Positions 8,543 to 64,000 of a stretch of DNA of 64,000 bases are shown piece by piece (within the stretch, counting starts at the first letter, position 1; every line of letters starts with the position of its first letter). A program made the position numbers and the translations under genes. The notes beneath the pieces are model-generated. The model had not been told where the DNA came from and made no database searches. It saw nothing but the letters and a program-made list of their open reading frames with translations. The stretch covers positions 1,490,001 through 1,554,000 of the forward strand of contig OZ249436.1 of assembly GCA_965235115.1 (NCBI GenBank). Direction: 5' to 3'. Origin of the DNA: Laetmonice hystrix. Lineage: Eukaryota.

Positions 8543-13370
<4,828 letters not shown>

Positions 13371-18125: not shown

Positions 18126-20114
18126 ATGTGGACAAGAAAGCTGAGGGTAGCAGCTGGTGTTGTGGCCAGGTATCGCAGTCAGTCAAGTGTTACAGTCAGG
18201 CAGCCACGTTTAGCAGCAAGTTATGTATCAGTACAACACATTTCAACCAGTTCACGTCAGTGCAGTGCTGAAACACCTTCCAGAAAACCTGAAATATTGC
18301 GAGCTTTGTGGCCTCAAGCCACATTTAACATAGACAAAATGACTGGGCTGTTAGACCACGACAACCATGCCATGCGTAAAGAATTTCGCGCTTTCATGAG
18401 TGATCCGGTGATGACTCCTAAATACAATATCTCTTTGTCTGAGGAACGAGACATTGCATTGACAAGACTTAAACGCATCTGTGATGGCGGTTTCATCTCT
18501 GTTCTTGATTTTCGAAACAACCCCCTGAGGATATTTGCAGCGCATGAGTTGGCAAGTATCATTGATCCAGCAATGACCACCAAGATGACGGTGCAGTTCA
18601 ACTTGTTTGGTGGGACTGTCCTGAAACTTGGCACTGAGCGCCACCACGAGAAACTTTTGAAGGGTATTGACACACTGGATGATGTTGGATGTTTTGGATT
18701 AACAGAATTAGGCTATGGAAACAATGCAGTCGAGATGGAGACTACAGCTGTCTATGACAAGGATTCGCAAGAGTTCATCGTCAACACTCCGTCTGTGATA
18801 GCCCAGAAGTACTGGATCACAAATGGAGCAGTTCACGCCAAGCACTGCGTGGTATTTGCTCAGCTGATGGTTGCCGAGCAGAACCATGGAATCCACGGAA
18901 TCCTTGTGAGGATTCGAGATGATGACATGAAGACCATGCCAGGGGTGACCGTGGAGGACATGGGCTACAAGATGGGTCTGAACGGAGTCGACAACGCCAA
19001 GCTGAGCTTTGACAACATCAGGGTCCCAAGGGAGAACCTTCTCAACCGGTACTCGGATGTAAATGATGCCGGTGAATTTACAACATCCATCAAAAGTAAC
19101 AGGGCTCGCTTCCTGACGGTGGCAGACCAGTTACTGTCCGGAAGGATCTGCATTGCCAGTATGTCACAAGGTGGGGCTAAGGCATCGTTGGCCATTGCTA
19201 TTCGATACGCAGCATCAAGGTTGACGGTAGGACCAACTGGGAAGTCTGACACACCGATCATGAGTTACCAGCTCCAGCAACGAGCCCTACTGCCTCTTCT
19301 TGCGCGGACATATGCAATAAACTTTGGGTTAGATTATGTGAAGGATCGCTGGGCTTTTCAGGCTGAGGACGGATCAGGCCACCCAGAGGTGGTTACCATG
19401 TGCTGTGTTATCAAACCGCTTGCCTCTTGGAACCTAGAGGAGGTGGCAACAGTGTCCCGTGAGCGATGTGGAGGGCAGGGATACCTTTCCTGCAACCGTT
19501 TTGGTCATTTCCTCGGCTTAGCTCATGCTGCAATGACAGCTGAGGGTGACAACAGTGTCCTCATGCAAAAAGTGGCCAAGGAACGACTGGCAGTTTTCAG
19601 GCCAGCCGCTCCAAAAGATCCTCCCCCCGCTGACCTGCTCAGCTTGGATTATCTGCAGTATCTCCTCCAGAAGCGTGAAGATGGCCTCTTCATGGAGCTT
19701 GGGATGAAGATGAAGGCGGCAGGGAAGGAAGCCATGTTCGATACGTGGATGTATGACTGCAGTGATCTTGTTCAAGCTGCGGCTCGTTCCTTTGGTGAGC
19801 GACTCATCAGCGACCGGTGTACGGCTAACACAACCAACGCAGACGAGTCCCTGCAGCACGTTCTTCAACAACTTCACCGTCTCTACGCCGTCAGTATTGT
19901 GGAGCGCCACCTGGCGTGGTTCATACTCAATGGAATCGTCCCTACAAGTGTTGCTGCTCAGGTTGAAGACACTGCAGCCCAGTTGTGTAAGGACATTGCG
20001 CCCCAAGCCCTGAGTCTCACGGAAGCCTTTGATATCACAGAAAACATGCTGTCGGCGCCAATTGCTCTTGATTGGGTCAAGTACAATGAATATGACAACC
20101 AAGGCGAAGTATAA
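18126..20114 (+). CDS. Acyl-CoA oxidase family flavoprotein (ACOX/ACOXL-like), single coding exon
   Basis: 662-aa ORF with [41 protein letters not shown] and TAEGDN (catalytic Glu position). A splice acceptor TTTTCTCTGTTGAAG ends at 18115, just before GCCATC-ATG. Confidence 0.93.
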
Positions 20115-20960: not shown

Positions 20961-21774
20961 GGCGACCATGTTCCCCATTGTGGTACATGTATACAGATGT
21001 GCGCAGTTTAATGATCCCCCCCCCCCCTCCAATTCTGCCCCCTCCCTCGTCAAAATCTTCCAAGAGCCATGTTTGCATTTTGAGGATCCCATTCGTCTAC
21101 TATTTAGTGGATTTCGGCTATTTTTTCCTTCAGAAATCGTCATTTCTGAGATAAATGCAGATCCGTTGAGTGCCGGGTGCAAATATACTTTCAGCTATTT
21201 TTTTAATTGGCTGTAATACTTGGCATGTGCATTTTCTGAAGACTGAAGCTCCCCCCCATCCCTTGAAATAAGATGGTTAGAAGTGTAGACGTAAATTTAT
21301 GTAAAATGGTCACACTCATACTTGGATTAAGAGCCTCCCTCCTCTGCCTCCTACACTCGTGCTTTACCATTCATGTTGTGAAGTCTGTCTTGGCTGATGT
21401 ACGCCTTGTCTTCATCTATAGACTGAGTGATAGCATTGTCGAGCAATTTTTATGTTTTAGGTTCCTATATTTCAGAGAAATTCCTATAAACTACATGAAC
21501 TTTATTTTTGGAAAAATTCTTATGAAAACCAAACTTCAAATGACACATGAGGATTAAGTGAAAATTGCTCATATTTTGAAACACCAAACTCGGTTTAAAA
21601 AATTATGAAAATACATTTCTTCATTTAAACTTTTGTAATTCTATATATTTTTAATGAATTTTTCTATACATGTTTGCATTTTGATATTTTAAACACTCCA
21701 GTGTTCTCGACACACTGCTGATGTTTCTGGATTAAAATGTTTATGTTCCAGAAGACAATTAGGCCACTCGCATC

Positions 21775-22956
21775 ATGAGTGAAAAGCTAGTGGACGAGAG
21801 GCTAAACCAAGCAATGGCCTACCTCGATAGTCTAACCCCTGGCCAATACAGTCCTGACCGTGTGGAGATGATGCGAGAAATCATGCAGTTTCTGAAGACA
21901 CACGGGGAAGAACGCATGAGTCAAATGGAGAACACAACGAACGCCTTAACAGTAAGCCTAGACAAGGTAGACATGAACCATCTCCTTGCTGTTGCGGATG
22001 CCTCCCCGACTGCAAAAAGTTATCTTATGGCAGGATATTGTTTTATGCAGGCTAGGGATCTTTTGGAAGGACCTGACGTAGCTGAGCCTTACACTGATGT
22101 TCGTGGACTGCATCTGATCGCCAAGGGACTAACTCATGAGAATTCGATGTTGGGTTTTGTTGAATGGAATGTCCCACATATGCAACGTTTCCTAGAGACA
22201 CACATAAAATTATGTCCAAATGATTATGCAGCACGCCTTGTACGACACCGCTTTTATTTAGGTGTTATGAAAGATGAAGACAAAATACGAGATCTAGAAA
22301 TCCTGGCTCATGATATGGAGTTGGATCAGTATGAAGACCAAGTAGACTTTGAGCAGGGCATGATGATCACCGTGTACTGGCATGTAGCAGCCATTTATGC
22401 CTTGACTGACCAGCACCAGAGAGCCATCGATACCTTTCAGAAGTGCCTTAAGCTAAACCCCAACGACTACGAATCAATATATGCCATTGCTTCCAACCTA
22501 ATACGTCTTAATCACCAGAACTGTCTACACATGAAAGACCAAATGGCCTACTATGATCCCGTAATCTTAGAAGAATCTGGAGCATTGTGCAAGAAGTACC
22601 TTTCCCTGGCCCCAAAATGTGCCAAGAAAGTTCCAGCAGCTCTTTATCAGCTGGCAGCTATATCCCTTATAAGAAACCGAAGAAGGGAATTTCTCTCATA
22701 CTACGAGGATGCTGTTGAGCAGGAGGCCATAGAGATGCCCTATGAGAGATACGCGACAACATTTTGGAAAGACTGTGGGGTAATGGGTTACAAAAAGATT
22801 CGTAAAGAGATCTGTTTTAACCCAACCTGTCCGGAAGAGGAATCGGTATCCGTCAAAATGTGCGCAGGCTGCCATGAAGCGGTCTACTGTGGCAGGATGT
22901 GTCAAAGCCAGCACCGACGTGTACACAAGAAACAATGTAAGAAGGTCCAGCGGTAA
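21775..22956 (+). CDS. TPR-like helical repeat plus C-terminal zf-MYND protein, paralogue A
   Basis: 393-aa ORF. TPR-like segment AIDTFQKCLKLNPNDYESIY. MYND pattern CFNPTC..CAGC..YCGRMCQSQH..HKKQC. Acceptor TTATGTTCCAG about 24 nt upstream of the ATG. Confidence 0.85.
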   Translation: MSEKLVDERLNQAMAYLDSLTPGQYSPDRVEMMREIMQFLKTHGEERMSQMENTTNALTVSLDKVDMNHLLAVADASPTAKSYLMAGYCFMQARDLLEGPDVAEPYTDVRGLHLIAKGLTHENSMLGFVEWNVPHMQRFLETHIKLCPNDYAARLVRHRFYLGVMKDEDKIRDLEILAHDMELDQYEDQVDFEQGMMITVYWHVAAIYALTDQHQRAIDTFQKCLKLNPNDYESIYAIASNLIRLNHQNCLHMKDQMAYYDPVILEESGALCKKYLSLAPKCAKKVPAALYQLAAISLIRNRRREFLSYYEDAVEQEAIEMPYERYATTFWKDCGVMGYKKIRKEICFNPTCPEEESVSVKMCAGCHEAVYCGRMCQSQHRRVHKKQCKKVQR

Positions 22957-24782: not shown

Positions 24783-25310
24783 TTTACGTTAATTCATACG
24801 ATATTCTCGAATTTAATGGTGCTGATAATGTTTTAAACTATTCCAATACGAAAAAGAAAGTTGAAACAATATTTTAATCAGGTGCGTCACCTAGATGTTC
24901 CGTTTTTGCAGGCAGCAAAATGTAAATTTAATACGGTTATGTTTTGTCATTCAAAGAAGAGGCGTCTGAAACCCAACCGTGCCCAGCCAATTTGCCACGA
25001 ATGACATTTTCTATGTAAAATGACCCAAGACCCCTAGAGCCGATTTCAGCAGCATACCTCCCTGGTCCTTGATCTGTCCCCAAACACTGGCCTTCCTGGT
25101 CTGAGTCTTGACAAAAATAAATCGCCATAGGTCTCGAAGAGAATGATTGTGTTTTATCTGTGCCCTCTCGTTTCCTGTGCCACTGATTTAATGTGTTATA
25201 TGTTCTGTCTCGGCTGACGCTTGCCATCCCTTTGTCCAGAGACAGAGTAGTGCCGTTGATGTTCCTTGATTAAAATGGTCCTGTTTCAGAACAACCAGCA
25301 AGGCTGTACC

Positions 25311-26483
25311 ATGAGTGAGAGACCAGAGAACGAAGGGCTGAACCAAGCAATGGCTTACCTCAACACTCTAACTCCTGACAAATGTAGTCCCGACGTTGTC
25401 GATATGATGCGAGATACGGTGACGTTTCTGAAGACATCCAGTGAAAGACGCATGAATCAAATGGAGAACACAGTAAATACCCTCAGACTAAACACAGGGA
25501 CAGTAGACATGAACCATCTCCTTGCTGTTGCGGATGCCTCCCCGACTGCACAAAGCTATATCATGGCAGGATATTGTTTTATGCAGGCTAGGGATCTTTT
25601 GGATGGACCTGACGTAGCTGAGCCTTACACTGATGTTCGGGGACTGCATCTGATCGCCGAGGGACTAACTCATGAGAATTCGATGATGACTTTTGTTGAA
25701 TGGAATGTCCCACATATGCAACGTTTCCTAGAGACACACATAGAATTATGTCCAAATGATTATGCAGCACGCCTTGTACAACACCGCTTTCATTTAGGTG
25801 TTATGAAAGATGAAGAGAAAATACGAGATCTAGAAATGCTGGCTCATGATATGGAGTTGGATCAGTATGATAGCCAAGGAGACTTTGAGCAGGGCGTGAT
25901 GATCACCTTGTACACCTTCCTAGCGTTCATTTATACCATGACCGACCAGCACCAGAGAGCTATCAACACCTTTGAGAAGTGCCTCAAGCTAAACCCCAAT
26001 GACTATGACTCCATATACGGCATCACTTTCAACCTATGCATCTCAAAATATGAAGATGGTGATACACTTGCAGCCCGCTATGATCCCGCAAGCCTGGAAG
26101 AGTCTGAAGCATTGTGCAAGAAGTATCTTTCACTGGCTCCGAAGTGTGCTAAGAAATTCCCTGCGGTTCTTTATCAGCTGGCGTACATATGTATCTTAAA
26201 GAATAGAAGAAGGGAATACCTTTCATACTACGAGGATGCTGTCGAGCAGGAAGCCTTGGAGATGCCGTACAACCGAAAAGTAGAAACTGCGTTTAAAACA
26301 TATGGCACGTTGAGTTACAAAATGATTCGTAAAGAGATCTGTTTTAACCCAACCTGTCCGGAAGAGGAATCGGTGCCCGTCAAAATGTGCACGGGCTGCC
26401 ATGAAGCGGTCTACTGTGGCAGGACGTGTCAAAGCCAGCACCGACGTGTACACAAGAAACAGTGTAAGAAGGCCCAGCGGTAA
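25311..26483 (+). CDS. TPR-like helical repeat plus C-terminal zf-MYND protein, paralogue B
   Basis: Colinear with paralogue A. The true start is probably ACC-ATG at 25311 (MSERPEN), after acceptor CTGTTTCAG at 25289; the ORF-track start at 25266 lies in the upstream intron. Confidence 0.85.
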   Translation: MSERPENEGLNQAMAYLNTLTPDKCSPDVVDMMRDTVTFLKTSSERRMNQMENTVNTLRLNTGTVDMNHLLAVADASPTAQSYIMAGYCFMQARDLLDGPDVAEPYTDVRGLHLIAEGLTHENSMMTFVEWNVPHMQRFLETHIELCPNDYAARLVQHRFHLGVMKDEEKIRDLEMLAHDMELDQYDSQGDFEQGVMITLYTFLAFIYTMTDQHQRAINTFEKCLKLNPNDYDSIYGITFNLCISKYEDGDTLAARYDPASLEESEALCKKYLSLAPKCAKKFPAVLYQLAYICILKNRRREYLSYYEDAVEQEALEMPYNRKVETAFKTYGTLSYKMIRKEICFNPTCPEEESVPVKMCTGCHEAVYCGRTCQSQHRRVHKKQCKKAQR

Positions 26484-35569: not shown

Positions 35570-36633
35570 TCCAAATTGCAAAGGACAGCGAGCCATTTAT
35601 ACTGGGGGACATCACGATAGGATATACCGAGAGCTATGTACCTTGGGGCCTACTGTAGCGATCAAACTGTATCCGCGCAGGTCAAGGCACAAGTGCGAAT
35701 AAAAACAGGCCATGTAATGAAGTTTAGCTCCTTCTTGGCCAAAAACAATGATGCCCCTTACGCGGTGAAAGAGCGGGTGTGGGATAGTGCCCTTCTCAGC
35801 GCTATCTTCTATAGCTGTGAAACATGGCTGACCAATGATGTACGAACGGCTGAGGCTACGTATATGAACACCCTCAAACAGATGTTAGGAGTCCGATCCA
35901 CTACTTGCAATGACCTGGCTGTAACTGAAGCAGGGGTAGGAACTGCTAAAGCGTACATAAAACAAAGACAATGCGATTTTATTCACAGACTATGCCGTAG
36001 AGAGGATTTCTGGGACTCTTACATTGGAAATCATTGGAACTCTATATCAACGAGAGTCGAGAAAATGTACGGGCAGCAATAAGTAGCTTATCTATAGGTG
36101 TGTGTCGCCCACTGTACCAGAGTACACACGAGTTGCCTTCACACGAATGCGTCTTGGTGCGCACAACCTCCGCATTGAGACGGGGAGGTGGGCCCGCATA
36201 GCCCGCGAGAACCGAACATGTGAATGTGGGCACTCGGTGCAGTCGGAGGAGCATGTCCTGACCCGGTGTCCATTGACTCTAGCTGCCCGTTTGCGCTGCT
36301 CCGAGGCCATAGGCCAACCAATGAACCACATCAACCTTGACCCTATCGAGGGGCAGAGCAAACAAATTGCTAGACTGTGCTGGGACATTTTTGAAAAGTT
36401 TAAGTAATTTATTCCTGTATTATGTATATATTTGTGATTTCCTGATTATAGTTTACCGATTTTCAGTCTACAGTATAACTCCGCTCCAAGCATAAGTAAC
36501 ATTTTTCTTTTTTTTCTTTTTTTCATTATCTTATCTTTTTGTTCTTTTCACCTTTGGACAGAAGACCGTGCTTAGCCCTTATTTTCCCCTTGTACAGTAC
36601 CACACTTTTGTCAATAAATACTACTACTACTAC
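35570..36633 (+). mobile_element. 5'-truncated, degenerate non-LTR retrotransposon (LINE; CR1/L2-group-like 3' end)
   Basis: RT C-terminal/thumb-like segment (YLG, frameshifted near 35637; IFYSCETW; LKQMLGV) followed after a stop/deletion by RMRLGAHNLRIETGRW..CECG..EEHVLTRCP. T-rich 3' UTR, AATAAA at 36613 and a (TAC)5 tail. Confidence 0.85.
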
Positions 36634-37608: not shown

Positions 37609-40600
37609 CACTGTCCCATACCTCCACTGTTATCTCACCGAGCCCCCACTGTCCTATACCTCCACTCACTGGGCCCCCACTGTCCCCTACCTCCACTCAC
37701 TGGGCCCCCACTGTCCCCTACCTCCACTCACTGGGCCCCCACTGTCCCATACCTCCACTCACCGAGCCCCCACTGTCCCATACCTCCACTCACTGGGCCC
37801 CCACTGTCCCCTACCTCCACTCACTGGGCCCCCACTGTCCCCTACCTCCACTCACTGGGCCCCCACTGTCCCATACCTCCACTCACCGAGCCCCCACTGT
37901 CCCATACCTCCACTCACTGGGCCCCCACTGTCCCATACCTCCACTCACTGAGCCCCCACTGTCCCATACCTCCACTCATCGAGCCCCCACTGTCCCATAC
38001 CTCCACTCATCGAGCCCCCACTGTCCCATACCTCCACTCATCGAGCCCCCACTGTCCCATACCTCCACTCATCGAGCCCCCACTGTCCCATACCTCCACT
38101 GTTATCTCACCGAGCCCTCACTGTCCCATACCTCCACTCACTGGGCCCCCACTGTCCCATACCTCCACTCACTGGGCCCCCACTGTCCCATACCTCCACT
38201 CACTGAGCCCCCACTGTCCCCTACCTCCACTCACTGAGCCCCCACTGTCCCATATCTCCATCACCGAGCCCCCACTGTCCCCTACCTCCACTCACCGAGC
38301 CCCCACTGTCCCCTACCTCCACTCACTGGGCCCCCACTGTCCCCTACCTCCACTCACCGAGCCCCCACTGTCCCCTACCTCCACTCACTGGGCCCCCACT
38401 GTCCCATACCTCCACTCACCGAGCCCCCACTGTCCCCTACCTCCACTCACTGGGTCCCCACTGTCCCCTACTCCACTCACTGGGCCCCCACTGTCCCATA
38501 CCTCCACTGTTATCTCACCGAGCCCCCACTGTCCCCTACCTCCACTCACTGGGCCCCCACTGTCCCCTACCTCCACTCACTGGGCCCCCACTGTCCCATA
38601 CCTCCACTGTTATCTCACCGAGCCCTCACTGTCCCATACCTCCACTCACTGGGCCCCCACTGTCCCCTACTCCACTCACTGGGCCCCCACTGTCCCATAC
38701 CTCCACTGTTATCTCACCGAGCCCCCACTGTCCCCTACCTCCACTCACTGGGTCCCCACTGTCCCCTACCTCCACTCACTGGGCCCCCACTGTCCCCTAC
38801 CTCCACTCACTGGGCCCCCACTGTCCCCTACCTCCACTCACTGAGCCCCCACTGTCCCCTACTCCACTCACTGGGCCCCCACTGTCCCCTACCTCCACTC
38901 ACTGGGCCCCCACTGTCCCCTACCTCCACTCACTGAGCCCCCACTGTCCCCTACCTCCACTCACTGGGCCCCCACTGTCCCCTACCTCCACTCACTGGGC
39001 CCCCACTGTCCCATACCTCCACTGTTATCTCACCGAGCCCTCACTGTCCCATACCTCCACTCACTGGGCCCCCACTGTCCCCTACCTCCACTCACTGGGC
39101 CCCCACTGTCCCCTACTCCACTCACTGGGCCCCCACTGTCCCATACCTCCACTGTTATCTCACCGAGCCCCCACTGTCCCCTACCTCCACTCACTGGGTC
39201 CCCACTGTCCCCTACCTCCACTCACTGGGCCCCCACTGTCCCCTACCTCCACTCACTGGGCCCCCACTGTCCCCTACCTCCACTCACTGAGCCCCCACTG
39301 TCCCCTACCTCCACTCACCGAGCCCCCACTGTCCCCTACCTCCACTCACTGGGCCCCCACTGTCCCCTACCTCCACTCACTGGGCCCCCACTGTCCCATA
39401 CCTCCACTGTTATCTCACCGAGCCCTCACTGTCCCATACCTCCACTCACTGGGCCCCCACTGTCCCCTACTCCACTCACTGGGCCCCCACTGTCCCATAC
39501 CTCCACTGTTATCTCACCGAGCCCTCACTGTCCCATACCTCCACTCACTGGGCCCCCACTGTCCCATACCTCCACTCACTGAGCCCCCACTGTCCCCTAC
39601 CTCCACTCACTGAGCCCCCCCCCCTGTCCCATACCTCCACTCACCGGGCCACCACTGTCCCATACCTCCACTGTTATCTCACCGAGCCCCCACTGTCCCA
39701 TACCTCCACTCACTGGGCCCCCACTGTCCCATACCTCCACTCACTGAGCCCCCACTGTCCCCTACCTCCACTCACTGAGCCCCCCCCCCCCCTGTCCCAT
39801 ACCTCCACTCACCGGGCCACCACTGTCCCATACCTCCACTGTTATCTCGCTAAGCCCCCACTGTCCCATACCTCCACTGTTATCTCGCTGAGCCCCCACT
39901 CTCCCATACCTCCACTGTTATCTCGCTGAGCCCCCACTGTACGTCCCATACCTCCACTGTTATCTCGCTGAGCCCCCACTGTCCCATACCTCCACTGTTA
40001 TCTCGCTGAGCCCCCACTGTCCCATACCTCCACTGTTATCTCGCTGAGCCCCCACTGTCCCATACCTCCACTATTATCTCACTGAGCCCCCACTGTCCCA
40101 TAACTCCACTGTTATCTCCCTGAATCTGTCCCGTACTTTCTCTGTTATCATCAGAGGCGCCACTCCTTATCCTTGGGACGCCTGAACTCCTGCCTGCCAC
40201 ACCGACATCCTCGTTGTTGAAGTCTGACCTTTTCAGCCGTTTACTTTTTCCCGAAGAAAAACCGCATAAAGCAAGTTGGTCTTTCAAATGTCCCCCACTG
40301 TCCCCTACCTCCACTCACTGGGTCCCCACTGTCCCCTACCTCCACTGTTATCTCACAGAGCCATCACTGTCCCATACCTCCACTCACTGGGCCCCCACTG
40401 TCCCCTACCTCCACTCACTGGGCCCCCACTGTCCCCTACCTCCACTCACTGAGCCCCCACTGTCCCCTACCTCCACTCACTGGGTCCCCACTGTCCCCTA
40501 CCTCCACTCACTGGGCCCCCACTGTCCCATACCTCCACTGTTATCTCACAGAGCCATCACTGTCCCATACCTCCACTCACTGGGCCCCCACTGTCCCATA

Positions 40601-43088
40601 CCTCCACTGTTATCTCACCGAGCCCTCACTGTCCCATACCTCCACTCACTGAGCCCCCACTGTCCCATACCTCCACTCACCGAGCCCCCACTGTCCCATA
40701 CCTCCACTCATCGAGCCCCCACTGTCCCATACCTCCACTCACTGGGCCCCCACTGTCCCATACCTTCACTCACTGAGCCCCCACTGTCCCCTACCTCCAC
40801 TCACTGAGCCCCCACTGTCCCATATCTCTATCACCGAGCCCCCACTGTCCCATACCTCCACTCATCGAGCCCCCACTGTCCCCTACCTCCACTCACTGGG
40901 CCCCCACTGTCCCATACCTCCACTCACTGAGCCCCCACTGTCCCCTACCTCCACTCACCGAGCCCCCACTGTCCCATACCTCCACTCACTGGGCCCCCAC
41001 TGTCCCCTACCTCCACTCACTGGGCCCCCACTGTCCCATATCTCCATCACTGAGCCCCCACTGTCCCATACCTCCACTGTTATCTCGCTGAGCCCCCACT
41101 GTCCCATACCTCCACTGTTATCTCGCTGAGCCCCCACTGTCCCATACCTCCACTGTTATCTCACTGGGCCCCCACTGTCCCATACCTCCACTGTTATCCC
41201 ACTGAGCCCCCACTGTCCCATAACTCCACTGTTATCTCCCTTAATCTGTCCCGTACTTTCTCTGTTATCATCAGAGGCTCCACTCCTTATCCTTGGGACG
41301 CCTGAACTCCTGCCTGCCACACCGACATCCTCGTTGTTGAAGTCTGACCTTTTCAGCCGTTTACTTTTTCCCGAAGAAAAACCGCATAAAGCAAGTTGGT
41401 CTTTCAAATGTCCCCCACTGTCCCCTACCTCCACTCACTGGGTCCCCACTGTCCCCTACCTCCACTCACTGGGCCCCCACTGTCCCATACCTCCACTGTT
41501 ATCTCACAGAGCCATCACTGTCCCATACCTCCACTCACTGGGCCCCCACTGTCCCCTACTCCACTCACTGGGCCCCCACTGTCCCCTACCTCCACTCACT
41601 GGGCCCCCACTGTCCCCTACCTCCACTCACTGGGCCCCCACTGTCCCCTACCTCCACTCACTGGGCCCCCACTGTCCCCTACCTCCACTCACTGGGCCCC
41701 CACTGTCCCCTACCTCCACTCACTGGGCCCCCACTGTCCCCTACCTCCACTCACTGGGCCCCCACTGTCCCCTACCTCCACTCACTGGGCCCCCACTGTC
41801 CCCTACCTCCACTCACTGGGCCCCCACTGTCCCCTACCTCCACTCACTGGGCCCCCACTGTCCCATACCTCCACTGTTATCTCACAGAGCCATCACTGTC
41901 CCCTACCTCCACTCACTGGGCCCCCACTGTCCCCTACCTCCACTCACTGGGCCCCCACTGTCCCCTACCTCCACTCACTGGGCCCCCACTGTCCCCTACC
42001 TCCACTCACTGGGCCCCCACTGTCCCATACCTCCACTGTTATCTCACAGAGCCATCACTGTCCCATACCTCCACTCACTGGGCCCCCACTGTCCCATACC
42101 TCCACTGTTATCTCACCGAGCCCTCACTGTCCCATACCTCCACTCACTGAGCCCCCACTGTCCCATACCTCCACTCACCGAGCCCCCACTGTCCCATACC
42201 TCCACTCACCGAGCCCCCACTGTCCCATACCTCCACTCATCGAGCCCCCACTGTCCCATACCTCCACTCACTGGGCCCCCACTGTCCCATACCTCCACTC
42301 ACTGAGCCCCCACTGTCCCCTACCTCCACTCACTGAGCCCCCACTGTCCCATACCTCCACTCATCGAGCCCCCACTGTCCCATACCTCCACTCATCGAGC
42401 CCCCACTGTCCCATACCTCCACTCACTGGGCCCCCACTGTCCCATACCTCCACTCACTGGGCCCCCACTGTCCCATACCTCCACTCATCGAGCCCCCACT
42501 GTCCCCTACCTCCACTCACTGAGCCCCCACTGTCCCATATCTCCATCACCGAGCCCCCACTGTCCCATACCTCCACTCATCGAGCCCCCACTGTCCCCTA
42601 CCTCCACTCACTGGGCCCCCACTGTCCCATACCTCCACTCACTGAGCCCCCACTGTCCCCTACCTCCACTCACCGAGCCCCCACTGTCCCATACCTCCAC
42701 TCACTGGGCCCCCACTGTCCCCTACCTCCACTCACTGGGCCCCCACTGTCCCATATCTCCATCACTGAGCCCCCACTGTCCCATACCTCCACTGTTATCT
42801 CGCTGAGCCCCCACTGTCCCATACCTCCACTGTTATCTCACTGGGCCCCCACTGTCCCATACCTCCACTGTTATCCCACTGAGCCCCCACTGTCCCATAA
42901 CTCCACTGTTATCTCCCTTAATCTGTCCCGTACTTTCTCTGTTATCATCAGAGGCTCCACTCCTTATCCTTGGGACGCCTGAACTCCTGCCTGCCACACC
43001 GACATTCTCGATGTTGAAGTCTGACCTTTTTAGCCGTTTACTTTTTCCTGAAGAAAAACCGCATAAAGCAAGTTGGTCTTTCAAATGT
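37609..43088. repeat. 31/37-bp C-rich minisatellite (5.4 kb) containing three copies of an about 170-bp unique block
   Basis: CCCCCACTGTCCCMTACCTCCACT(GTTATC)CACTGGG units; blocks at about 40121-40290, 41241-41410 and 42920-43088. Confidence 0.97.
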
Positions 43089-46404: not shown

Positions 46405-49300
46405 CGACTCGGTATAGCCCCCCCCCCCTCCGCTCCAGTGGCACAACATCAGCCCTCACGCACACCCCAACCCCCACCCCACCCCAACCACAACCACGTA
46501 CAGCTGATTAATGACAGTATACAACATGTCAGACAGTATATAAACTGGTGATATTAACAACGGGCCTGGATCAGCCCGTCCCGCATACACTCAATCTCAC
46601 ACACTCACAGAGTGCCAAGTGGTGCACATACAGGAGGAATATAGGCTACATGATTTGATATTATATATGATATAGTGACGATTCCCTGGCGGAGTAGACA
46701 GGGAGACTGCATGTGCATCAATTGACATTACCCAGCGAGTCATACCAAGCCCTAGATTAACACCGTCATGTAGTGGTTGGCACCATTCTACACTATTTTA
46801 TTAACTTAAACAATATCCCCTTCCGTCCTCCACACAGATGGGGCTGTGTACTTTTTGTCTGTAGAGATCGAGGTACGTAGGAGAGGAAATTCCCGGCTAT
46901 CTTGGCAACCATCCTCTCAAAGGGATCATGCACCAGTCGTCAACAGTCGACTGGCGCGAAAATAAGGCCTTTCGTGAGAAATCGTCAAAAAAAGTTTATT
47001 TCTCTTGCCATTTTGTGATGAGATATTTTTTTCATGCCGTTTTGATGAGATATTTCCGTAAGACATTTTTCGTGATGGTTTGATAAGATATTTTATCATA
47101 ATGTTAGGCCAAAATGGCAACTGTCGTCCTTAAAATTACACTGTAAAACATAGGGGATGTAATGCACAAATTGTCATTCCTATAGTTCCTAAAAACCTTA
47201 TTCATAACAACTGACTGTAATTTTCTGGTCTCCATTTGTAAATCTGCATTACATGTTTGATTTAAAAAAAACGTACTTTACCAAGTGTACATTTGAGAAG
47301 GCCACAGAGGCGGATATTATTTAAGTATGGATTGTTTTTCTGATCAAGTATAATAACAACATCCTTCCCGCCTGGCCAGTAGACACGGAATCACTCACCC
47401 CTCCGTAGGATCCAAACATCACGTTAACCGGTTAAGGCGTCCAAGAAAATTCCGCCGTTTGCGCAACTTTGCCGGCTTTCCTTCTTTGATTTCATCTTCC
47501 ATTTTAACCAAACCGAAGTATTCGGCTGGGTTGTCTCGTGTGAGCGCGTCAATAATGTCAAATAACAAGTACAAGCACTGGAGATGGATGTACGGCCCGG
47601 ATGGGAACTCCAGCTTCATGCCGTCTGCCGTAATATACCACGGCCAAGAGGACACTGCCCCGACCCCGCCTCTACAGCCGCAACAGCCGTCGCCCAATGA
47701 AGTTAAGTAGAGCACCGTCCTCGTGTATAGCCCAGTCGTAATATACTTCACATGGAGCCGATGGCAACATTATTCCCGCACGTTGTGTGAGCTTGTGTGA
47801 GCTTGTGTATGCTCTGGGTAAACTACCAACACTTCTCGCTGTCGACCTTTCACATCTCGAGCCTTCGAGAGAGAAAACGACTCATTTGCATAGACACGTG
47901 GTCGGCCGATAGGAGCTCAAAAGTCCAGAGTTCATAATGTTGTACGTGTATTCCCGAGTATACGCCGACAGTTGGCCGTGATCAAACCACAGCTAAAAAA
48001 AAGTCAACAGTTCTAATAAACTTAGTGTACATGGTAGGTCTATACATTTACTAAGTTTCCAACTATATCGTTTGGGTGTTACATGTATGGGCTTATCCCC
48101 CGATCAAGGATCTCACTTTCATATTATTAAAACGTATTCTCACAATTAAGGGCGTATATACATATGTTTTGAGACCTCACCGCCTGAAATCTGCTGCCCC
48201 GGATGAGAATGACAATTATTTCCTGTAGTGTAATTAGGCAATCGACATGACACATCAGCGGAAGGGAATTCGACGTGACTGTCGTCTGTTTTTTTATGAC
48301 GTCATCCCCCCTGACACATTGACCTCTGTGGCACGGCGCCGCCTATCCCTATTTCCTGGCGATGACCACAAGCGAAGGTTCATTGTGTGTGGACATAACT
48401 CAGGTGTCTAGGTCGAATCGTTTCATGGTGACATCAGGTGTCATCAGGTGAGATAAAATTTGACAGCACTCATAATTTCTTATGATCTTGTCGCCACAGA
48501 CGTCCTCATAACTTTGGGGTCGTTCATGTCTCATCTTTTCCGCGCGCAGTAGAATATTTAATGGAGGTAACTCGACCTAACTGTTCATAATTAGTTTGAA
48601 ATCAGGATTAATATCTGGGTACAATTCTGAGTGGACCTAAATGTGTAATACACTTTTGTAGTTTGATGCAAGCGAATATATTAAGACATTGTTGGTGTTA
48701 ATGTGTGTGATCTGCGGAAGGGTGGTGGAAAACGGAGATTATGTCTAAATACTTGTTGTTTTCCACGGGCTCCATGCTCCCTTCAGCTAGGGTGGTGGCG
48801 GTGGTGAGGGGTGAGGGGGGAGGTAGCCTCGTGCGTGCTCACGACCAGGGAGGTCGGGGTGGGGGTGCGGTGACCTTCAGACGATCCTCTACATTATGGA
48901 CAGGACGTTTTGTAGACGACCTGTCGATCCTGGTGGCAGGTTGCCTCAAGTGGGCCACAATCAAAGCCGTGGGGGAGGGGCGGGGGGGGGGGGGGGTCGG
49001 TGCAGGGGGGGGGGGAGGGGCTGATTCACCTACCAGACCCTGACGTCAGGAATATCCTGTTTATGCCAGATAAACTCTGTACAGAGGCTTTGTCTAACAC
49101 AACCACAACCTGGTCGTCATGCCGGTGTAGAGAAGAAGAGAAAAACACGCCATGGTTCCCTTCTGTCACACACAGCAGTTGGTTACTTTCAATGTTAGGT
49201 AACCATGACAACCGCTATAGCTAGGTGACACCAAAGAACCGATCCTGCATGGGGCTCAAATAGAATCATACGATACCTTTTTATGTGACTTGTGTAAAGA

Positions 49301-56013: not shown

Positions 56014-56582
56014 TCAATAATCTCTGTGCATATAGGGTACTATAACCAATGTAAACAGGACCGTAAGAAACATGGCTGTCATGAAGATGATAAAGAGAGT
56101 TTTGTCGATAGTTGAAGCCACAAAGTACCACTCCAGTCTTAAGTCACGCTGCTCTTTACGCCGGAAGTGAGACTTCCGCTTGTATAACCGCCGCATTTCG
56201 GACTTCCGCTTACGACTATCCTCTCGCGGGAGTCTCCGGTTTCTCCGTTGCATCTGGATTCCCTCGTGACCAATGGACTCGAGGAACTCCTCCTCAGTCG
56301 AGTAGATATCATCATCCTCTGTCGTTGTTACCGCTGTCGATTCATCCTCTTGCTGCGCGCGTCGCATTCTTTTCTCTGCTTCTGCGCACATCTCGTACAC
56401 GTCATAATAGGTGACGAGAGTTGTACACGTGACTTTGGCCAGGAAGTTCTGGCAGAGTTTCATCAGGGGGACTGGGACTTCGGGGCATGGGTTGCGATCA
56501 CCCTTCTTCTTTATGTTAATTATAAGTGTTGAGAAGAGTAGCGAGATCGAATTCAACGTCATGACCAATGTCAAGAAAAGAC
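56014..56582 (-). CDS. nAChR-like exon 6 (M3, cytoplasmic loop, M4)
   Basis: TTTTTCAG|GT CTT TTC.. LFLTLVMTLNSISLLFSTLIINI..HRDY stop. Minus-strand AATAAA at 55913-55918. Confidence 0.92.
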
Positions 56583-59500
56583 CTGAAAAATAAATGAGTT
56601 AAAACCATAAGACCATACAACAAAGATTTTGTACAGAGGTGAAAACGAGTTTTATAATGCCCTTTACCAATCCCACCGAACTACCGGCAGCTCCTCCCTA
56701 GGAACCAATATTACTTTGAAATACTCTTAATTAACTAGTCAAGACTTCGTTTAAAACCCTGTTTAAAAGCACTGGGACTGACGTGAGAATACTTGCCGAT
56801 CAGTGGAAGGGAATCCGATTCTGGCATGGTTTCGGCGATCGCCAATTGCAGCACATAGAGCGACAGGAAGACAGTCAGCCCGATACCAACCTTGTTTCCA
56901 TCGTCACACGGGAGGAAATAACTGAACAAAGTCAGGAAGCAGAGCACCAGGACGGGAGCTAACACCGTGTACGAGTAGTAGAGTGGTTTACGTCGGAAGT
57001 GAAGACGTAACGTAATCTGTGGAAACGTCCCGGCAAACACCTCGTACGACATCGTCTCTCGCGAGAGCGAGATGTTGATAAGTTGGTATTCATTGTTCGG
57101 TATATACTCCGACATTTCCACGTTTTCGATCTTTTTAACGAGGTCCAGTTGTTCACCGTCGTAGATCCAGGACCCGAAGCGGATGAAACAGCGCTGGTTG
57201 TCGAACGGGAAGTAGGTGACATCGACGGCACAGGAACTTTTGATCATAAGTGGGATAACCCACTCGACACGGCCGTCGTAATGTACAGTGGCGCGGCTGT
57301 CGTTTACCAACACAAAGCCGTCATCACCGTCGTCCGCGCTGGAACATAGAATATACTTTTTCATTTGCAGAACCAGTAAGGAACATTTTCACCTTGTGTG
57401 TTATCATTTGTACATCAGTAGTAAGAACAATCGTCCTTTAGTTGCCTCCTTGTGCCCGGCGGTTCGCCCTTCACTTCCTGAAGCTATACTTTAACCCTTA
57501 TCTCCGCCGGTCAAATTGGTATTTTGATTTTTGTTTTATTCATTGATTGTACAATTTTACTCGAAATTAATATTCGTATTGATGAGATAGAAGAGGCGAG
57601 GAACTGACTTGTTGAAGATATACAGATCGGGCACCCAGAGAGCGAATGAAGGCATGATCATCTGTTGTAAGCCATCGTATTCGGCCGGGTTCCATTGTAG
57701 AATCTCATTGTGCCATTCCTGCAATGATCAACGCCTAATATTGGAAACTACACCTGACTGCCAAATGACCCATTGACGGTCTCTGACTGCTGAATGACCC
57801 ATTGACGGTCACTGTGACTGCTGACTGCCCCATTGACGGTCACTCTGACTGCTGACTGACCCATTGACGGTCTCTCTGACTGCTGACTGCCCCATTGACG
57901 GTCACTCTGACTGCTGACTGACCCATTGACGGTCACACTGACTGCTGACTGCCCCATTGACGGTCACTGTGACTGCCCCATTGACGGTCACACTGACTGC
58001 TGACTGCCCCATTGACGGTCACTCTGACTGCTGACTGCCCCATTGACGGTCACTCTGACTGCTGACTGCCCCATTGACGGTCACTCTGACTGCTGACCGC
58101 CCCATTGACGGTCACTGTGACTGCCCCATTGACGGTCACTCTGACTGCTGACCGCCCCATTGACGGTCACTGTGACTGCCCCATTGACGGTCACACTGAC
58201 TGCTGACTGCCCCATTGACGGTCACTCTGACTGCTGACCGCCCCATTGACGGTCACTGTGACTGCCCCATTGACGGCCACTCTGACTGCTGAAGAAGATA
58301 TATCTTCTATCAGATGGAGTAAAATGATCGTGTTAAAAGTCCCAAGTAATTAAACATAATATTTCCCTATGCCATAAGTATAATGCTACGATCCCTATAG
58401 ATTCCCTATGAATGACATCTACGGTACGGAGCCAGTCAGCAACTGTTCTAATGGTTGGATGGGTTGTTATATATTACGAGGGAAATGAGGGAATGTCGAA
58501 CAAATTAACATATTTTGGGTTCATGGATTTGCCACCAGGGGCCGCCACATCCATTCACTACGCAAGGTGCTGCCAGACGACAAAGAGCCGCCTGACCTTG
58601 GAAAGTTATTGCTCTAACAGCTCGGCACCCTGGCGAAGGGCAGTTATTGCTATATCTTTAATTTGGGCGGCCAAAAAACGCTATTTCCCGTCATTTGGAG
58701 ATCAAGATTCTGAAGGTATTCATGAGAAGCTTGCCAAGTGGGTTTTGATGATTTTCTAGATTTGATTCAAGTTTCTCTCTGTTTTTTTGATCCCTTGGAG
58801 TTGAACTTCGATCGTTGAGGTCTACAAGAACATTTCCTCAGTAACAACATTGATAACGGTCATATAATAATTGGTCTCGTTCTGAGAGGTGGTAAAGATG
58901 ATTACCTCAAATATCCAGGCGTGTGTTATCAGCGTTTGATTCTTCTCGTCCTGTGGAATCAAGCAAATATTCAGAGATAAAACATGTCTCCTCTCCTGTG
59001 GAATCAAGCAAATATTCAGAGATAAAACATGTCTCCTCTCCTGTGGAATCAAGCAAATATTCAGAGATAAAACATGTCTCCTCTCCTGTGGAATCAGGAA
59101 AATATTCAGAGATAAAACATGTCTCCTTTCCTGTGGAATCAAACAATAAATATTCAGAGATAAAACATGTCTCCTCTCCTGTGGAATCAAGCAAATATTC
59201 AGAGATAAAACATGTCTCCTCTCCTGTGGAATCAAGCAAATATTCAGAGATAAAAGATGTCTCCTCTCCTGTGGAATCAAGCAAATATTCAGAGATAAAA
59301 CATGTCTCCTCTCCTGTGGAATCAGGAAAATATTCAGAGATAAAACATGTCTCCTCTCCTGTGGAATCAAGCAAATATTCAGAGATAAAACATGTCTCCT
59401 CTCCTGTGGAATCAAGCAAATATTCAGAGATAAAAGATGTCTCCTCTCCTGTGGAATCAAGCAAATATTCAGAGATAAAACATGTCTCCTCTCCTGTGGA

Positions 59501-62500
59501 ATCAGGAAAATATTCAGAGATAAAACATGTCTCCTCTCCTGTGGAATCAAGCAAATATTCAGAGATAAAACATGTCTCCTCTCCTGTGGAATCAAGCAAA
59601 TATTCAGAGATAAAAGATGTCTCCTCTCCTGTGGAATCAAGCAAATATTCAGAGATAAAACATGTCTCCTCTCCTGTGGAATCAGGAAAATATTCAGAGA
59701 TAAATCAGGTCTCCTCTCGGTACCAGTAGAACACGTCATGTATTCAGTATGTGAAGGTCAGGGCGTTCATTCTTTTACTAGCCTAGTCATGTTCTAAGGA
59801 AATGAAACACATCGCTGAGGAGGTCCAGCCCCCCTCCCAACCCCCCAACACCCGGTGGGCCCTCCGGATTCTGGTAAATTTAAGGGGGGGCAGTCAGGCC
59901 CGTAGCCACGGGGAGTGGGGTGGGGAACAGTCCCCCCGCTCCCTATTCTGTCGCCAACCGGAGCCGTGAATCGTGCACACGGGCCAAAAAAAAATCCTTT
60001 TAATTACTTTGCGCCCAATTTCCCCTCAATCGGTTTTAAACATCATAGAGGAGGGACATGATTATTATTATTATTCCTGCAATCTCTGCTAAGATCAAGA
60101 AGGTCTTTACTCACCAGATCCATTATTTGATGGAGTGACAGAGAGAAATTGACCTTCAAGGTGGTACTAGCGTTAAGTACCGGTCTGGTTCCGGGGTCAT
60201 AGTTCATGGTCAGGTCATCGAACAGCATCCTCTCCACACTGAGTCGTTCCTGCATATTCCAGCCACCTGAATACCACAATAACGTATCATTATTAAACCT
60301 CAGGTCATCAAACAGCATCCTCTCCACACTGAGTCGTTCCTGCATATTCCAGCCACCTGAATACCACAATAACGTATCATTATTAAACCTCAGGTCATCA
60401 AACAGCATCCTCTCCACACTGAGTCGTTCCTGCATATTCCAGCCACCTGAATACCACAATAACGTATCATTATTAAACCTCAGGTCATCAAACAGCATCC
60501 TCTCCACACTGAGTCGTTCCTGCATATTCCAACCACCTGAATACCACAATAACGTATCATTATTAAACCTCAGGTCATCAAACAGCATCCTCTCCACACT
60601 GAGTCGTTCCTGCATATTCCAGCCACCTGAATACCACAATACCAGCCACCTGAATACCACAATACCAGCCACCTGAATACCACAATACCAGCCACCTGAA
60701 TACCACAATACCAGCCACCTGAATACCATAATACCAGCCACCTGAATACCACAATACCAGCCCCCTTAATACCACAATACCAGCCACCTGAATACCACAA
60801 TACCAGCCACCTGAATACCACAATACCAGCCCCCTTAATACCACAATACCAGCCCCCTTAATACCACAATACCAGCCACCTGAATACCACAATACCAGCC
60901 ACCTTAATACCACAATACCAGCCACCTTAATACCACAATACCAGCCACCTGAATACCACAATACCAGCCACCTTAATACCACAATACCAGCCTCCTTAAT
61001 ACCACAATACCAGCCACCTTAATACCACAATACCAGCCACCTTAATACCACAATACCAGCCACCTTAATACCACAATACCAGCCACCTGAATACCACAAT
61101 ACCAGCCACCTTAATACCACAATACCAGCCACCTGAATACCACAATAACGTATCATTATTAAATCTTTCCCAAGTACCGACCTAAAACTTCTCAGAATAA
61201 ATGGATGCACACTGATCAGAATATATGCAAACAGAAAACCAAATCGTCTGCTCAGATTTTCAGAATTATCCCATTCACAGGACAGAATATCTCCCTTTTA
61301 TTGTGCGTGTGGGAAAATTGAGCTATTTAAAAATTTTCCTCCAGAATTCATCAACTCAAAGTAAATTGTTATTTTAAATTAAATTATTTTAAATTAAATT
61401 TAAATTTTCATTGTTTACGTTATAAAATCATACCACTAAAAAAAGTCACAAAATCTGGACTACTCAATCTTTCGCACGATATCACAATGCATGGTCTCCA
61501 GTCAGCCGAAAGATTTTGGTTATGGGTCCGTACCATCTTTGTGGGCAGTGGCGGCAGGTTGGCACAAACACCAAATCAGGGGAGATAAGTACAGATCTAT
61601 ACCTGGTCCAAGTCTGCATGCATCCCCTGACATTGATGAAGGCCGGCCCTCGACATTTTAAATTCTATATAAGGTGCTGTGATCGATCTCAGGGGAGGCG
61701 TGAAGTTTGATTGGTTCCTATTGTAGCGTAGTACACTCTGGTTAGTTCCAGTAAATTATTTATTATACTGTAGACCGTTCTGGCGCGATATCACACTGAC
61801 TTACACTGGGAGTTTTTATAGTATTCAAGTCATCCTTGTGTATAATAGTCCACCCATATATGGCCCACTCCCAACACATTTAGGTATCCTTCATGACTTC
61901 AGGAACCCCACCACCGCAGTCCATCCACTGGGGTGTGTTCGTCACCCCGTTATACCATACCGCCACCCCGCCCCGCCCCCCCACCCCACCTTTACCCACC
62001 CCAATATTAGCCGCCTCTGTGGGGTGTGTTCGTCACCCCCGTTATACCGCCACCCCACTCCCCACCCCACCTTTACCCACCCCAATATTAGCAGCCTCTG
62101 TGGGGTGTGTTCGTCACCCCGTTATACCCCCATACCGCCACCCCACTCCCCACCCCACCTTTACCCACCCCAATATTAGCCGCCTCTGTGGGGTGTGTTC
62201 GTCACCCCGTTATACCCCCATACCGCCACCCCACTCCCCGCCCCACCTTTACCCACCCCACTCCCCACCCCACCTTTACCCACCCCAATATTAGCCGCCT
62301 CTGTGGGGTGTGTTCGTCACCCCGTTATACCCCCATACCGCCACCCCACTCCCCACCCCACCTTTACCCACCCCAATATTAGCCGCCTCTGTGGGGTGTG
62401 TTCGTCACCCCGTTATACCCCCATACCGCCACCCCACTCCCCACCCCACCTTTACCCACCCCAATATTAGCAGCCTCTGTGGATGAGGAGCATTGGTACA

Positions 62501-63162
62501 GTCATGAACACCATGCCACAGGAATCTGCAGGTTTTCTCTATAAACGCATCAACCCGTGGATGCTATTCTTAATCAATAATACTGCGCCATATTCACGCC
62601 AGGAGAGTATGATACACAACTAAAAGCCATGCTTTATTCAGAGATAATGTCAGCTGTTGTTTCACGGGACCGGACAACTCCACGGTCCATGTCATACCGA
62701 GTGGTCCACTTGTATTGTAACTCCACGGTCCATGTCATACCGAGTGGTCCACTTGTATTCTAACTCCGAGATGAATACCTCAAGACGGAACATTGCGGTA
62801 GTCTGCCGCAGTGACGCCTCACCTGACGCCACCATTGACGCCTCCACAGGCGCCTCCAGTGCGGTCTATGGCTGCGAGGGAAGACAGATATCTGACTATC
62901 TTATTATCATTTGTCAGCAGGACAAGCCAGCCAGGTCGGCCGATCATCCATATTCTCCACAGGGCCAACATTTCCACCATTGCATGAAGACAACCTCCTA
63001 CCTCAGGACAAATCCCATCGTCTGGTATTCATTGGATCAATAAAAACACATTGCATGCATTTACCCTCTTGTTGATGGTCGACATGAATATGAAAACATG
63101 GAGAATTACGTACCGCATGGGGGCAATGCAATCCATATCACAGCCGCCACCAGCCTCCACAT
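56014..63162 (-). CDS. Nicotinic acetylcholine receptor-like Cys-loop ligand-gated ion channel subunit, non-alpha type; 6 exons: 63114-63162, 60115-60266, 58906-58950, 57609-57718, 56797-57338, 56014-56582; 488 aa
   Basis: Exons sum to 1467 nt with matching phases. Features: signal peptide MWRLVAAVIWIALPPC, WVPDLYIFNNAD, Cys loop CAVDVTYFPFDNQRC, FGSWIYD, RRKPLYY before M1, M2-M3 ETMPESDSLPLIG, M4 EWYFVASTIDKTLFIIF. The 45-nt and 110-nt exons match the conserved nAChR exon pattern. Confidence 0.92.
56797..57338 (-). CDS. nAChR-like exon 5 (Cys loop, M1, M2)
   Basis: TGTTCCAG acceptor; ends PLI-G at the non-canonical donor GCAAGT. Confidence 0.9.
57609..57718 (-). CDS. nAChR-like exon 4 (110 nt)
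   Basis: TTGCAG|EWHNEILQWNPAEYDGLQQMIMPSFALWVPDLYIFN|GTCAGT. Confidence 0.92.
57755..58292. repeat. About 29/22-bp intronic minisatellite
   Basis: TGACTGCTGACTGCCCCATTGACGGTCACTC, ending about 35 nt before the nAChR exon-4 acceptor. Confidence 0.93.
58906..58950 (-). CDS. nAChR-like exon 3 (45 nt)
   Basis: TTCCACAG|DEKNQTLITHAWIFE|GTAATC. Confidence 0.9.
58949..59717. repeat. 45-bp minisatellite made of the nAChR exon-3 acceptor, 17 copies
   Basis: Minus-strand unit TGTTTTATCTCTGAATATTTGCTTGATTCCACAG|GAGAGGAGACA. Confidence 0.97.
60115..60266 (-). CDS. nAChR-like exon 2
   Basis: TATTCAG|GT GGC TGG.. ERMLFDDLTMNYDPGTRPVLNASTTLKVNFSLSLHQIMDL|GTGAGT. The 5' boundary is ambiguous because the acceptor is tandemly duplicated. 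Confidence 0.88.
60210..60640. repeat. 90-bp repeat spanning the nAChR intron-1/exon-2 junction, about 4.8 copies
   Basis: Minus-strand unit TTTAATAATGATACGTTATTGTGGTATTCAG|GTGGCTGGAATATGCAGGAACGACTCAGTGTGGAGAGGATGCTGTTTGATGACCTGAGG. Confidence 0.97.
60619..61147. repeat. 23-bp minisatellite spanning the same nAChR acceptor, about 23 copies
   Basis: Minus-strand unit TATTGTGGTATTMAG|GTGGCTGG. Confidence 0.96.
61929..62482. repeat. 88-bp C-rich repeat, about 6 copies
   Basis: TGGGGTGTGTTCGTCACCCCGTTATACCCCCATACCGCCACCCCACTCCCCACCCCACCTTTACCCACCCCAATATTAGCCGCCTCTG. Confidence 0.93.
63114..63162 (-). CDS. nAChR-like exon 1 (signal peptide)
   Basis: ATG TGG AGG CTG..TGC G|GTACGT. The phase-1 donor matches the phase-1 acceptor of exon 2, and there is an in-frame TAG upstream of the ATG. 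Confidence 0.7.
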
Positions 63163-63311
63163 GATCGTAAAGAAAACGTTCTCTTGGGACAGATCAACCT
63201 ACTCCTGTCGTCTAGCTTCTGGTGTTGACCTAGATGGCTTGACTCCGTGCGAGCATGCACCGACCGACTCAATGCATGTCAGCCTCTCCCTCAAGGACTG
63301 CCGAGGTTCTG

Positions 63312-63378
63312 GCAGCAGCAGCCGCAGCAGTACCAGCAGCAGCAGCAGCAGTAGCAGTAGCAGCAGCAGCAGCAGTAT

Positions 63379-63409
<31 letters not shown>

Positions 63410-63438
63410 TCCAGCAGCAGCAGCAGCAGCAGTAGCAG
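63312..63438. repeat. Interrupted (CAG/CTG)n microsatellite, about 42 triplets
   Basis: GCA runs interrupted by CCG, TAC, TAG, TAT and TTC triplets. Confidence 0.95.
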
Positions 63439-63758
63439 GCAGAGGACGAGCCGGTTTTACGCCGGCTCATGGCGCTGCGCCTGCTGTTGTTGCTGAGGCG
63501 GCTGAGGTGATGCTGCCCTCACCATCATTGTTACGACTATAGGCGCAACTTATTTCACTCTTCACCAGTAATTTCTGTAAGGCATCGCTGATACAGGCAT
63601 CTTTTTTGATTAAATACAGCCCATCCTGAATGTATTTTACTCAGATGCAAGTTGAACCTCAAAAATCTCGTCATTTTACCATTACCCCCTCCCCGACAGG
63701 ATAGGCTCGGAGGCCTACAGGGTTCATTGGCAGAAAGTCTTACAGTTATAGAAACAGA

Positions 63759-63997
63759 TCTAGGATAGGGCATGCACTGACCTCAGGCCCAGGTCTAGGA
63801 TAGGGCATGCACTGACCTCAGGCCCAGGTCTAGGATAGGGCATGGACTGACCTCAGGCCCAGGTCTAGGATAGGGCATACACTGACCTCAGGCCCAGGTC
63901 TAGGATAGGGCATACACTGACCTCAGGCCCAGGTCTAGGATAGGGCATGCACTGACCTCAGGCCCAGGTCTAGGATAGGGCATGCACTGACCTCAGG
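63759..63997. repeat. 35-bp minisatellite, about 7 copies
   Basis: TCTAGGATAGGGCATGCACTGACCTCAGGCCCAGG. Confidence 0.95.
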
Positions 63998-64000
63998 ACG

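Follow-up and report, generated by a model that had tools for sequence, protein, structure and literature searches.

The second exon of a nicotinic acetylcholine receptor (nAChR) subunit gene of the annelid Laetmonice hystrix is preceded by 27 acceptor-like splice sites in total, held in tandem repeats at the boundary between intron 1 and exon 2. This array is most likely a recent and polymorphic mirage minisatellite, which would be removed together with intron 1 as exon 2 pairs with its nearest acceptor. Mirage is the name that tandem duplications of exon-intron boundaries received in amphioxus (PMC3087553, PMC3902484, in the excerpts available). In the window analysed here, which is the whole stretch of 64,000 nucleotides of contig OZ249436.1 (positions 1,490,001 to 1,554,000, assembly GCA_965235115.1), the anatomy of the repeats, their reading frames and an intact host gene can be read directly, and parallel arrays are present at two other splice sites. 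The choice of acceptor is suggested by precedents in other animals and by controls internal to the window.

The nAChR subunit gene lies on the minus strand, and its six exons, once joined, give an intact ORF of 488 aa. Exon 1 (63114..63162, 49 nt, phase 1) is a signal-peptide-like candidate, chosen on hydrophobicity alone as the highest of seven ATG..GT candidates in the region 61170-64000. It would be followed by exon 2 (60115..60266, 152 nt), which has its authentic acceptor at 60267 and aligns to alpha7 residues 3-42, exon 3 (58906..58950, 45 nt), exon 4 (57609..57718, 110 nt), exon 5 (56797..57338, 542 nt), with the Cys loop, loop C and M1-M2 and a GC donor directly after it, and exon 6 (56014..56582, 569 nt), with M3-M4 and the stop codon. 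The last intron (56796-56583, minus strand) is a GC-AG intron. An earlier candidate for exon 3 (58881-58837), with a GA donor, was dropped once the canonical 58950-58906 was found.

The product matches the Pfam families PF02931 (Neur_chan_LBD) and PF02932 (Neur_chan_memb), a pair shared with lophotrochozoan non-alpha nicotinic receptor subunits, and its best PDB match is alpha7 (E 1e-38). A ligand-binding domain with the Cys loop, a transmembrane region and an intact ORF identify a Cys-loop nicotinic receptor. The vicinal cysteines typical of alpha-type subunits are missing from its loop C in the alpha7 alignment, and for this reason the subunit is classed as non-alpha. The best three of 16 homologues of exon 5, all annelid proteins, come from Paralvinella (59% identity), Ridgeia (58%) and Capitella (57%). 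A further Pfam match, to DUF285, scored 24.3 bits, below the cut-off of 25, and was taken as repeat-driven chance.

A 90-bp array of 4.8 copies (60210..60641, minus strand; period 90 and 99% matches in TRF) spans the boundary between intron 1 and exon 2, as a previous sequence-only reading had claimed. Its unit combines 57 nt from the start of exon 2 with 31 nt from the end of intron 1, the two separated by 2 nt, and is repeated head-to-tail, so that each copy crosses the exon-intron boundary in the manner of a mirage. The 2 nt at the unit junction (60298-60299) derive from neither the exon nor the upstream intron of this haplotype. Extra acceptors precede 60626, 60536, 60446 and 60356 on the minus strand, and the acceptor AGs end at 60627, 60537, 60447, 60357 and, for the authentic site, 60267, precisely where that reading had located them. 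The acceptors had also been described as identical, but the copies are not: the 60536 copy shows a silent Gly change, and all four duplicates share a silent change in a Phe codon that the real exon lacks, so that neither of the two differences among the 90-bp copies alters the protein. Moreover, each unit was supposed to bring its own upstream intron. This is correct for four of the five acceptors, as the intron end (31 nt) and exon start (57 nt) at 60356, 60446 and 60536 do not differ in extent or layout from those of the real acceptor, and all four show a YTRAY branch-like motif at -27, whereas 60626 keeps just 15 nt of the intron end, with no YTRAY within 45 nt and an AG 21 nt upstream.

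Nested with this array there is a second one, made of 23 copies of a 23-bp unit (60619..61147, minus strand; TRF) that combines 8 nt of exon start with 15 nt of intron end. It adds 22 acceptor-like sites (11 CAG and 11 AAG), two of them open in frame and 20 leading to premature stops. The five 90-nt-spaced acceptors of the ladder proposed earlier are real as sequence features, but 22 more sites follow upstream. Altogether, a full ORF is obtained from 7 of the 27 sites and premature stops from 20, and the 26 extra AG sites, all upstream of 60267 in the adjoining intron, are the repeated splice signals of a mirage.

The frame of the 90-bp unit invites a different interpretation, in which substantial use of the distal acceptors would produce a ladder of subunit isoforms with one to four extra 30-residue units after the signal peptide, each contributing a glycosylation sequon and the greater part of helix alpha1. 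None of the four upstream units contains a stop, and each translates to the 30-residue peptide with an N-D-T sequon that had been claimed for it; joining exon 1 to these acceptors would extend the canonical ORF of 488 aa to a full 518, 548, 578 or 608 aa, with the remainder of the subunit intact, again as claimed. Use of the nearest distal acceptor (60356) would create a 242-nt exon, a size inside the usual range of exon definition. These four open units, the complete intron end and the YTRAY at -27 that three distal acceptors possess, and the silence of both copy differences all speak for the ladder. Even so, we regard it as quite unlikely. The copied peptide aligns to human alpha7 residues 3-10 and ends ahead of the conserved NY, so that the units are in frame but the extra helices they were said to encode are incomplete (presumably most of helix alpha1, not the whole of it) and lack the NY anchor, which argues against the ladder. 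The copied stretch amounts to 57 of the 152 nt of exon 2 and the unit contains no consensus donor, and it is therefore no complete alternative exon of the kind that substitutes for another after exon duplication.

Chance would also explain an open frame. Among all possible duplications at the exon-2 boundary, 1230 of 4646 (26%) are in frame and open, a frequency that weighs against reading the openness of the ladder as a sign of function, and at the exon-3 boundary the figure is 684 of 2070 (33%), with 0% for exon 4 and 3% for exon 6. No excess of in-frame arrays was found (two of four are open, P 0.11-0.26), and there is no indication of selection on the repeat as coding sequence from its two silent differences, one of which is common to the record of the other haplotype described below. 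The frame and the position of the array need no selection.

A search with the repeated ORF against 1.84 billion representatives returned 55 matches, of which 19 were examined. A short tandem repeat of the helix is absent from these 19 of 55, which is a point against the ladder, and an N-terminal tandem repeat is likewise absent from the 7 of 16 exon-5 homologues examined. The closest match, P0017 (85%), its cluster mate P0072, and P0078 (85%) are ORFs that read through exon 2 from a start 4-8 residues ahead of it, and none of the three has a repeated unit before exon 2 at the protein level, a comparison that depends on gene calling. This again disfavours the ladder, and the conservation expected of a functional alternative acceptor was not seen in these relatives, the protein-level comparison being a weak one. 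When the repeated ORF was searched at near length, one protein was obtained among two candidates, without the repeat. The repeat proteins P0030, P0041 and P0067, also among the matches, were treated as repeat-driven chance.

There are, in contrast, two whole exon-2-like stretches in seven of the 19 matches (P0034, P0035, P0037, P0039, P0040, P0048 and P0051), which are possibly mutually exclusive exons. In P0040 the two copies are almost identical, maybe as an effect of annotation or assembly. In the other six, including P0034 from Biomphalaria and P0037 from Cichlidogyrus, the exon for the N-terminal helix is likewise duplicated, and this diversification of exon 2 by whole-exon duplication in other lophotrochozoan receptors, seen among the 19 of 55 matches, lends the ladder some support. 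However, the duplicates of the relatives are complete and diverged, whereas the array of Laetmonice is partial (57 of 152 nt), lacks a donor and keeps 99% identity.

Two more arrays in the window serve as a reference for the choice of splice site. In the same gene, the last 45 nt of intron 2 are repeated 17 times (58941..59718, minus strand), which supplies 17 exon-3 acceptors spaced 45 nt apart, every one of them open and in frame. Compared with the commonest unit, 7 of the 16 extra units carry amino-acid changes. One of the 45-bp units has a 3-nt insertion, and the frame is kept. If this second ladder were used, it would place 15-residue units, up to 241 residues, between alpha7 positions 42 and 43, inside the ligand-binding domain and at a point that we take to be the beta1-beta2 loop of the gating interface. 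The same rule that makes longer subunits at exon 2 would therefore burden exon 3 with this insertion, which is an argument against it. In an unrelated renalase gene, our internal control, the donor of exon 6 is present in 17 copies (9074..10661, minus strand; units of 88-100 nt), and stops follow from all 16 extra donors, yet the 7-exon ORF (354 aa) is intact. The stops from 20 of 27 exon-2 sites and from 16 of 16 extra renalase donors are also at odds with a ladder, and the use of the site nearest to the exon is the simplest rule under which the nAChR and renalase genes both work. Mirages thus recur at unrelated genes (nAChR exons 2 and 3, renalase exon 6), although not above chance: the two spliced genes that were modelled have 22 splice sites, of which 3 carry arrays, against 1.5 expected from random placement of 8 events (P=0.17), so that arrays are not enriched at splice sites in the window. 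The masked tandem arrays make up about 41% of the window.

The closest known system is that of amphioxus, in which mirages have been described in the genes Adh3, TnC, the globins BflGb6 and BflGb9, and PGBD5, according to the available excerpts of the two reports (PMC3087553, PMC3902484). In BflGb6, the end of the intron and the start of exon 2 are copied, with 6 units on one haplotype and 3 on the other (PMC3087553), which is the layout of the nAChR exon-2 array. For mirages of this layout, RT-PCR suggested regular splicing in the accessible part of the first report (PMC3087553), a result that counts against the isoform ladder, and aberrant mRNA was absent in the excerpts of both (PMC3087553, PMC3902484). 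The nAChR array differs in its unit size (90 nt, against 150-160 in BflGb6 and 10-72 in Adh3, in the same excerpts), in the second 23-nt array nested with it, in having a unit open in frame, and in its annelid host. Among the papers listed by our literature search there was none on annelid mirages, and the group may be unreported in print.

Human genes offer a second set of precedents, again taken from portions of the respective papers. The polymorphic duplication 844ins68 of CBS (c.844_845ins68) repeats an intron/exon junction and creates two acceptors, of which the downstream one is strongly favoured, with normal mRNA (PMC2630376); it represents one extra copy, in a vertebrate and experimentally tested, as compared with the 26 extra sites at nAChR exon 2. 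Minisatellites (VNTRs) at human boundaries repeat identical splice sites, as the nAChR arrays do, but they are donor arrays like that of renalase, and those of nAChR are acceptor arrays. In the donor VNTRs of F7 (IVS7), lamin B2 and PDGF only the authentic site is used, whereas in those of 6-16 and CBS intron 13 splicing also employs two pseudo-sites next to the authentic donor, and the early experiments on globin duplications did not agree with one another (PMC1557585). Taken as analogies, these precedents would favour the canonical product while leaving room for a leak, and the pseudo-sites of 6-16 and CBS (PMC1557585) are a further point on the side of the ladder. Because such neighbouring sites are used, a low-level use of 60356 or 60446 seems plausible in the annelid gene. 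The human and amphioxus arrays may nevertheless fail to predict how an annelid splices.

In the reading that we favour, the mirage would be a by-product of a very high turnover of tandem repeats in this genome. A 90-nt stretch over the intron 1/exon 2 boundary would have been duplicated and later expanded by slippage or unequal crossing-over, with the 23-nt sub-unit expanding within the 90-nt array. Exon 2 is most likely recognised from its donor and paired by the spliceosome with the closest acceptor, 60267; the array would then leave the transcript as part of intron 1, and the product would be the 488-aa subunit. Some leakage to the first or second acceptor beyond 60267 may occur at a low level, unselected. 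It is improbable that the array serves to make longer receptors. An RNA structure masking the distal acceptors was considered and dropped, since the predicted fold of 60100-60660 is no better than those of shuffled sequences (z -1.04, with 15 of 100 shuffles equally good).

An alternative with more serious consequences is that the array damages its allele. Splicing would then choose the first complete acceptor on its way, site 61132, or skip exon 2, resulting in an mRNA prone to decay and a recessive hypomorph carried by a heterozygote, which a large receptor family would buffer; annelids have 52-129 nAChR genes, according to the excerpt consulted (PMC6896357). Farthest upstream, a copy of the 31-nt intron end (61133..61163, minus strand) adjoins unique sequence of intron 1, and 61132, the sole site attached to the native upstream intron, leads from this full intron end to a stop after 38 codons. 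That the intron-proximal copy was used in some of the early duplication experiments (PMC1557585, in part) and that the array looks heterozygous would agree with damage. We consider it unlikely, however, as it would require the definition of a 1018-nt internal exon, the downstream site is favoured in CBS 844ins68 (PMC2630376), the amphioxus reports, in the excerpts mentioned, record no aberrant mRNA from mirages (PMC3087553, PMC3902484), and the remainder of the ORF of the array allele is intact.

A model of intron gain and exon duplication has also been proposed for the amphioxus mirages (PMC3087553, in the part consulted). Applied here, the array would be an early stage of this process, in which the junction GT or the AG|GT acts as a donor and releases a separate mini-exon of 57-58 nt. 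Each unit does contain an AG|GT and a junction GT, and whole duplicates of exon 2 exist in related receptors, but judged by their sequence these donors fit the consensus poorly, a 58-nt mini-exon would shift the frame, and the intron left inside the unit would have only 32 nt, which makes this a very improbable reading. Recursive splicing at AG|GT was set aside too, the regenerated donor being a poor one on sequence grounds.

Read evidence comes from the contigs of three DNA runs (X1-X3) of one sample, possibly the assembly's own source; these contigs were placed on 59725-60356 only, and the arrays themselves are not spanned. All three runs contain a 73-nt record that crosses the unit junction, at 2.8-3.7 times the single-haplotype depth, in agreement with the array as first claimed. 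An assembly artefact, with the array or its copy number not being real, is in view of this record exceedingly improbable, even considering that the three runs represent one sample, that no contig spans the array and that the junction to the 23-bp array is missing among the records shown. The depth of a 41-nt piece common to all exon-start copies, divided by that of the junction record, gives 1.48, 1.56 and 1.67, where 1.50 is expected with four junctions on one haplotype only and 1.25 with four on both. These ratios imply 3.0-4.1 junction copies in total, in one sample and from contig depth, which by the caveat of the tool is not equal to copy number, and in X1 the one-haplotype model gives the better fit (rmse 4.5 vs 9.0). 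The four-unit array is therefore probably present on one haplotype only, which weakens the case for an isoform ladder. If this is so, the intact ORF tells less about selection on the array allele.

The picture of copy number between haplotypes, drawn from contig depth in this one sample, includes a second upstream context in addition to the junctions. The silent Gly variant seen in the 60536 copy recurs, with one more difference, on a second record, which has single-haplotype depth and whose 21 letters past the intron end match neither the junction nor the window's upstream flank. At this loose end (window position 60297), a 15-nt exon-like piece is apparent in the record before the intron end; decoded from the consensus of two records, it agrees at 7 of 7 fixed letters in the piece and at 7 of 11 overall. 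Since the record seems to hold this piece, the other haplotype would not be simply unduplicated, and the second record could represent a remnant, or else a duplication that arose independently and has a similar breakpoint. We infer that the real exon varies between alleles and that this is the origin of the Gly variant in the 60536 copy, which would account for its silence. The 39-nt core common to all copies is phased by no contig.

An ordinary mirage, the likeliest reading, is a caution for gene prediction in repeat-rich invertebrate genomes. At the same time, the locus constitutes a natural test of acceptor choice, with 27 competing acceptors at exon 2 and 17 at exon 3, and its apparently heterozygous state provides a built-in allelic control. 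A ladder confirmed at the RNA level would offer a clear example of a mirage yielding protein isoforms. It is a quite doubtful proposition that the array allele makes a ladder of subunits with 30-120 additional N-terminal residues and their glycans, that individuals differ accordingly in receptor assembly or pharmacology, and that mirages of this kind supplied the material from which exon 2 was duplicated in other lophotrochozoan nAChR genes.

Other features of the window are recorded here as observations. On the plus strand, an intronless acyl-CoA oxidase ORF of 666 codons (18114-20111; Pfam ACOX) is followed by a tandem duplicate pair of related intronless ORFs of about 400 codons (21763-22953 and 25260-26480), whose cysteine-rich end resembles, in our opinion, a MYND zinc finger. 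Two ORF fragments at 35621-36404 (plus strand), with no Pfam match, presumably correspond to the end of a LINE-type element, and a coding-looking ORF segment at 47422-47769 (minus strand), also with no Pfam match, is possibly the last exon of a gene. Finally, three stretches of non-repeat sequence that are nearly identical to one another (about 40039-40314, 41159-41434 and 42836-43087) interrupt a 31-bp array of 161 copies (37634-43087); one of the three was scanned and gave no Pfam match.
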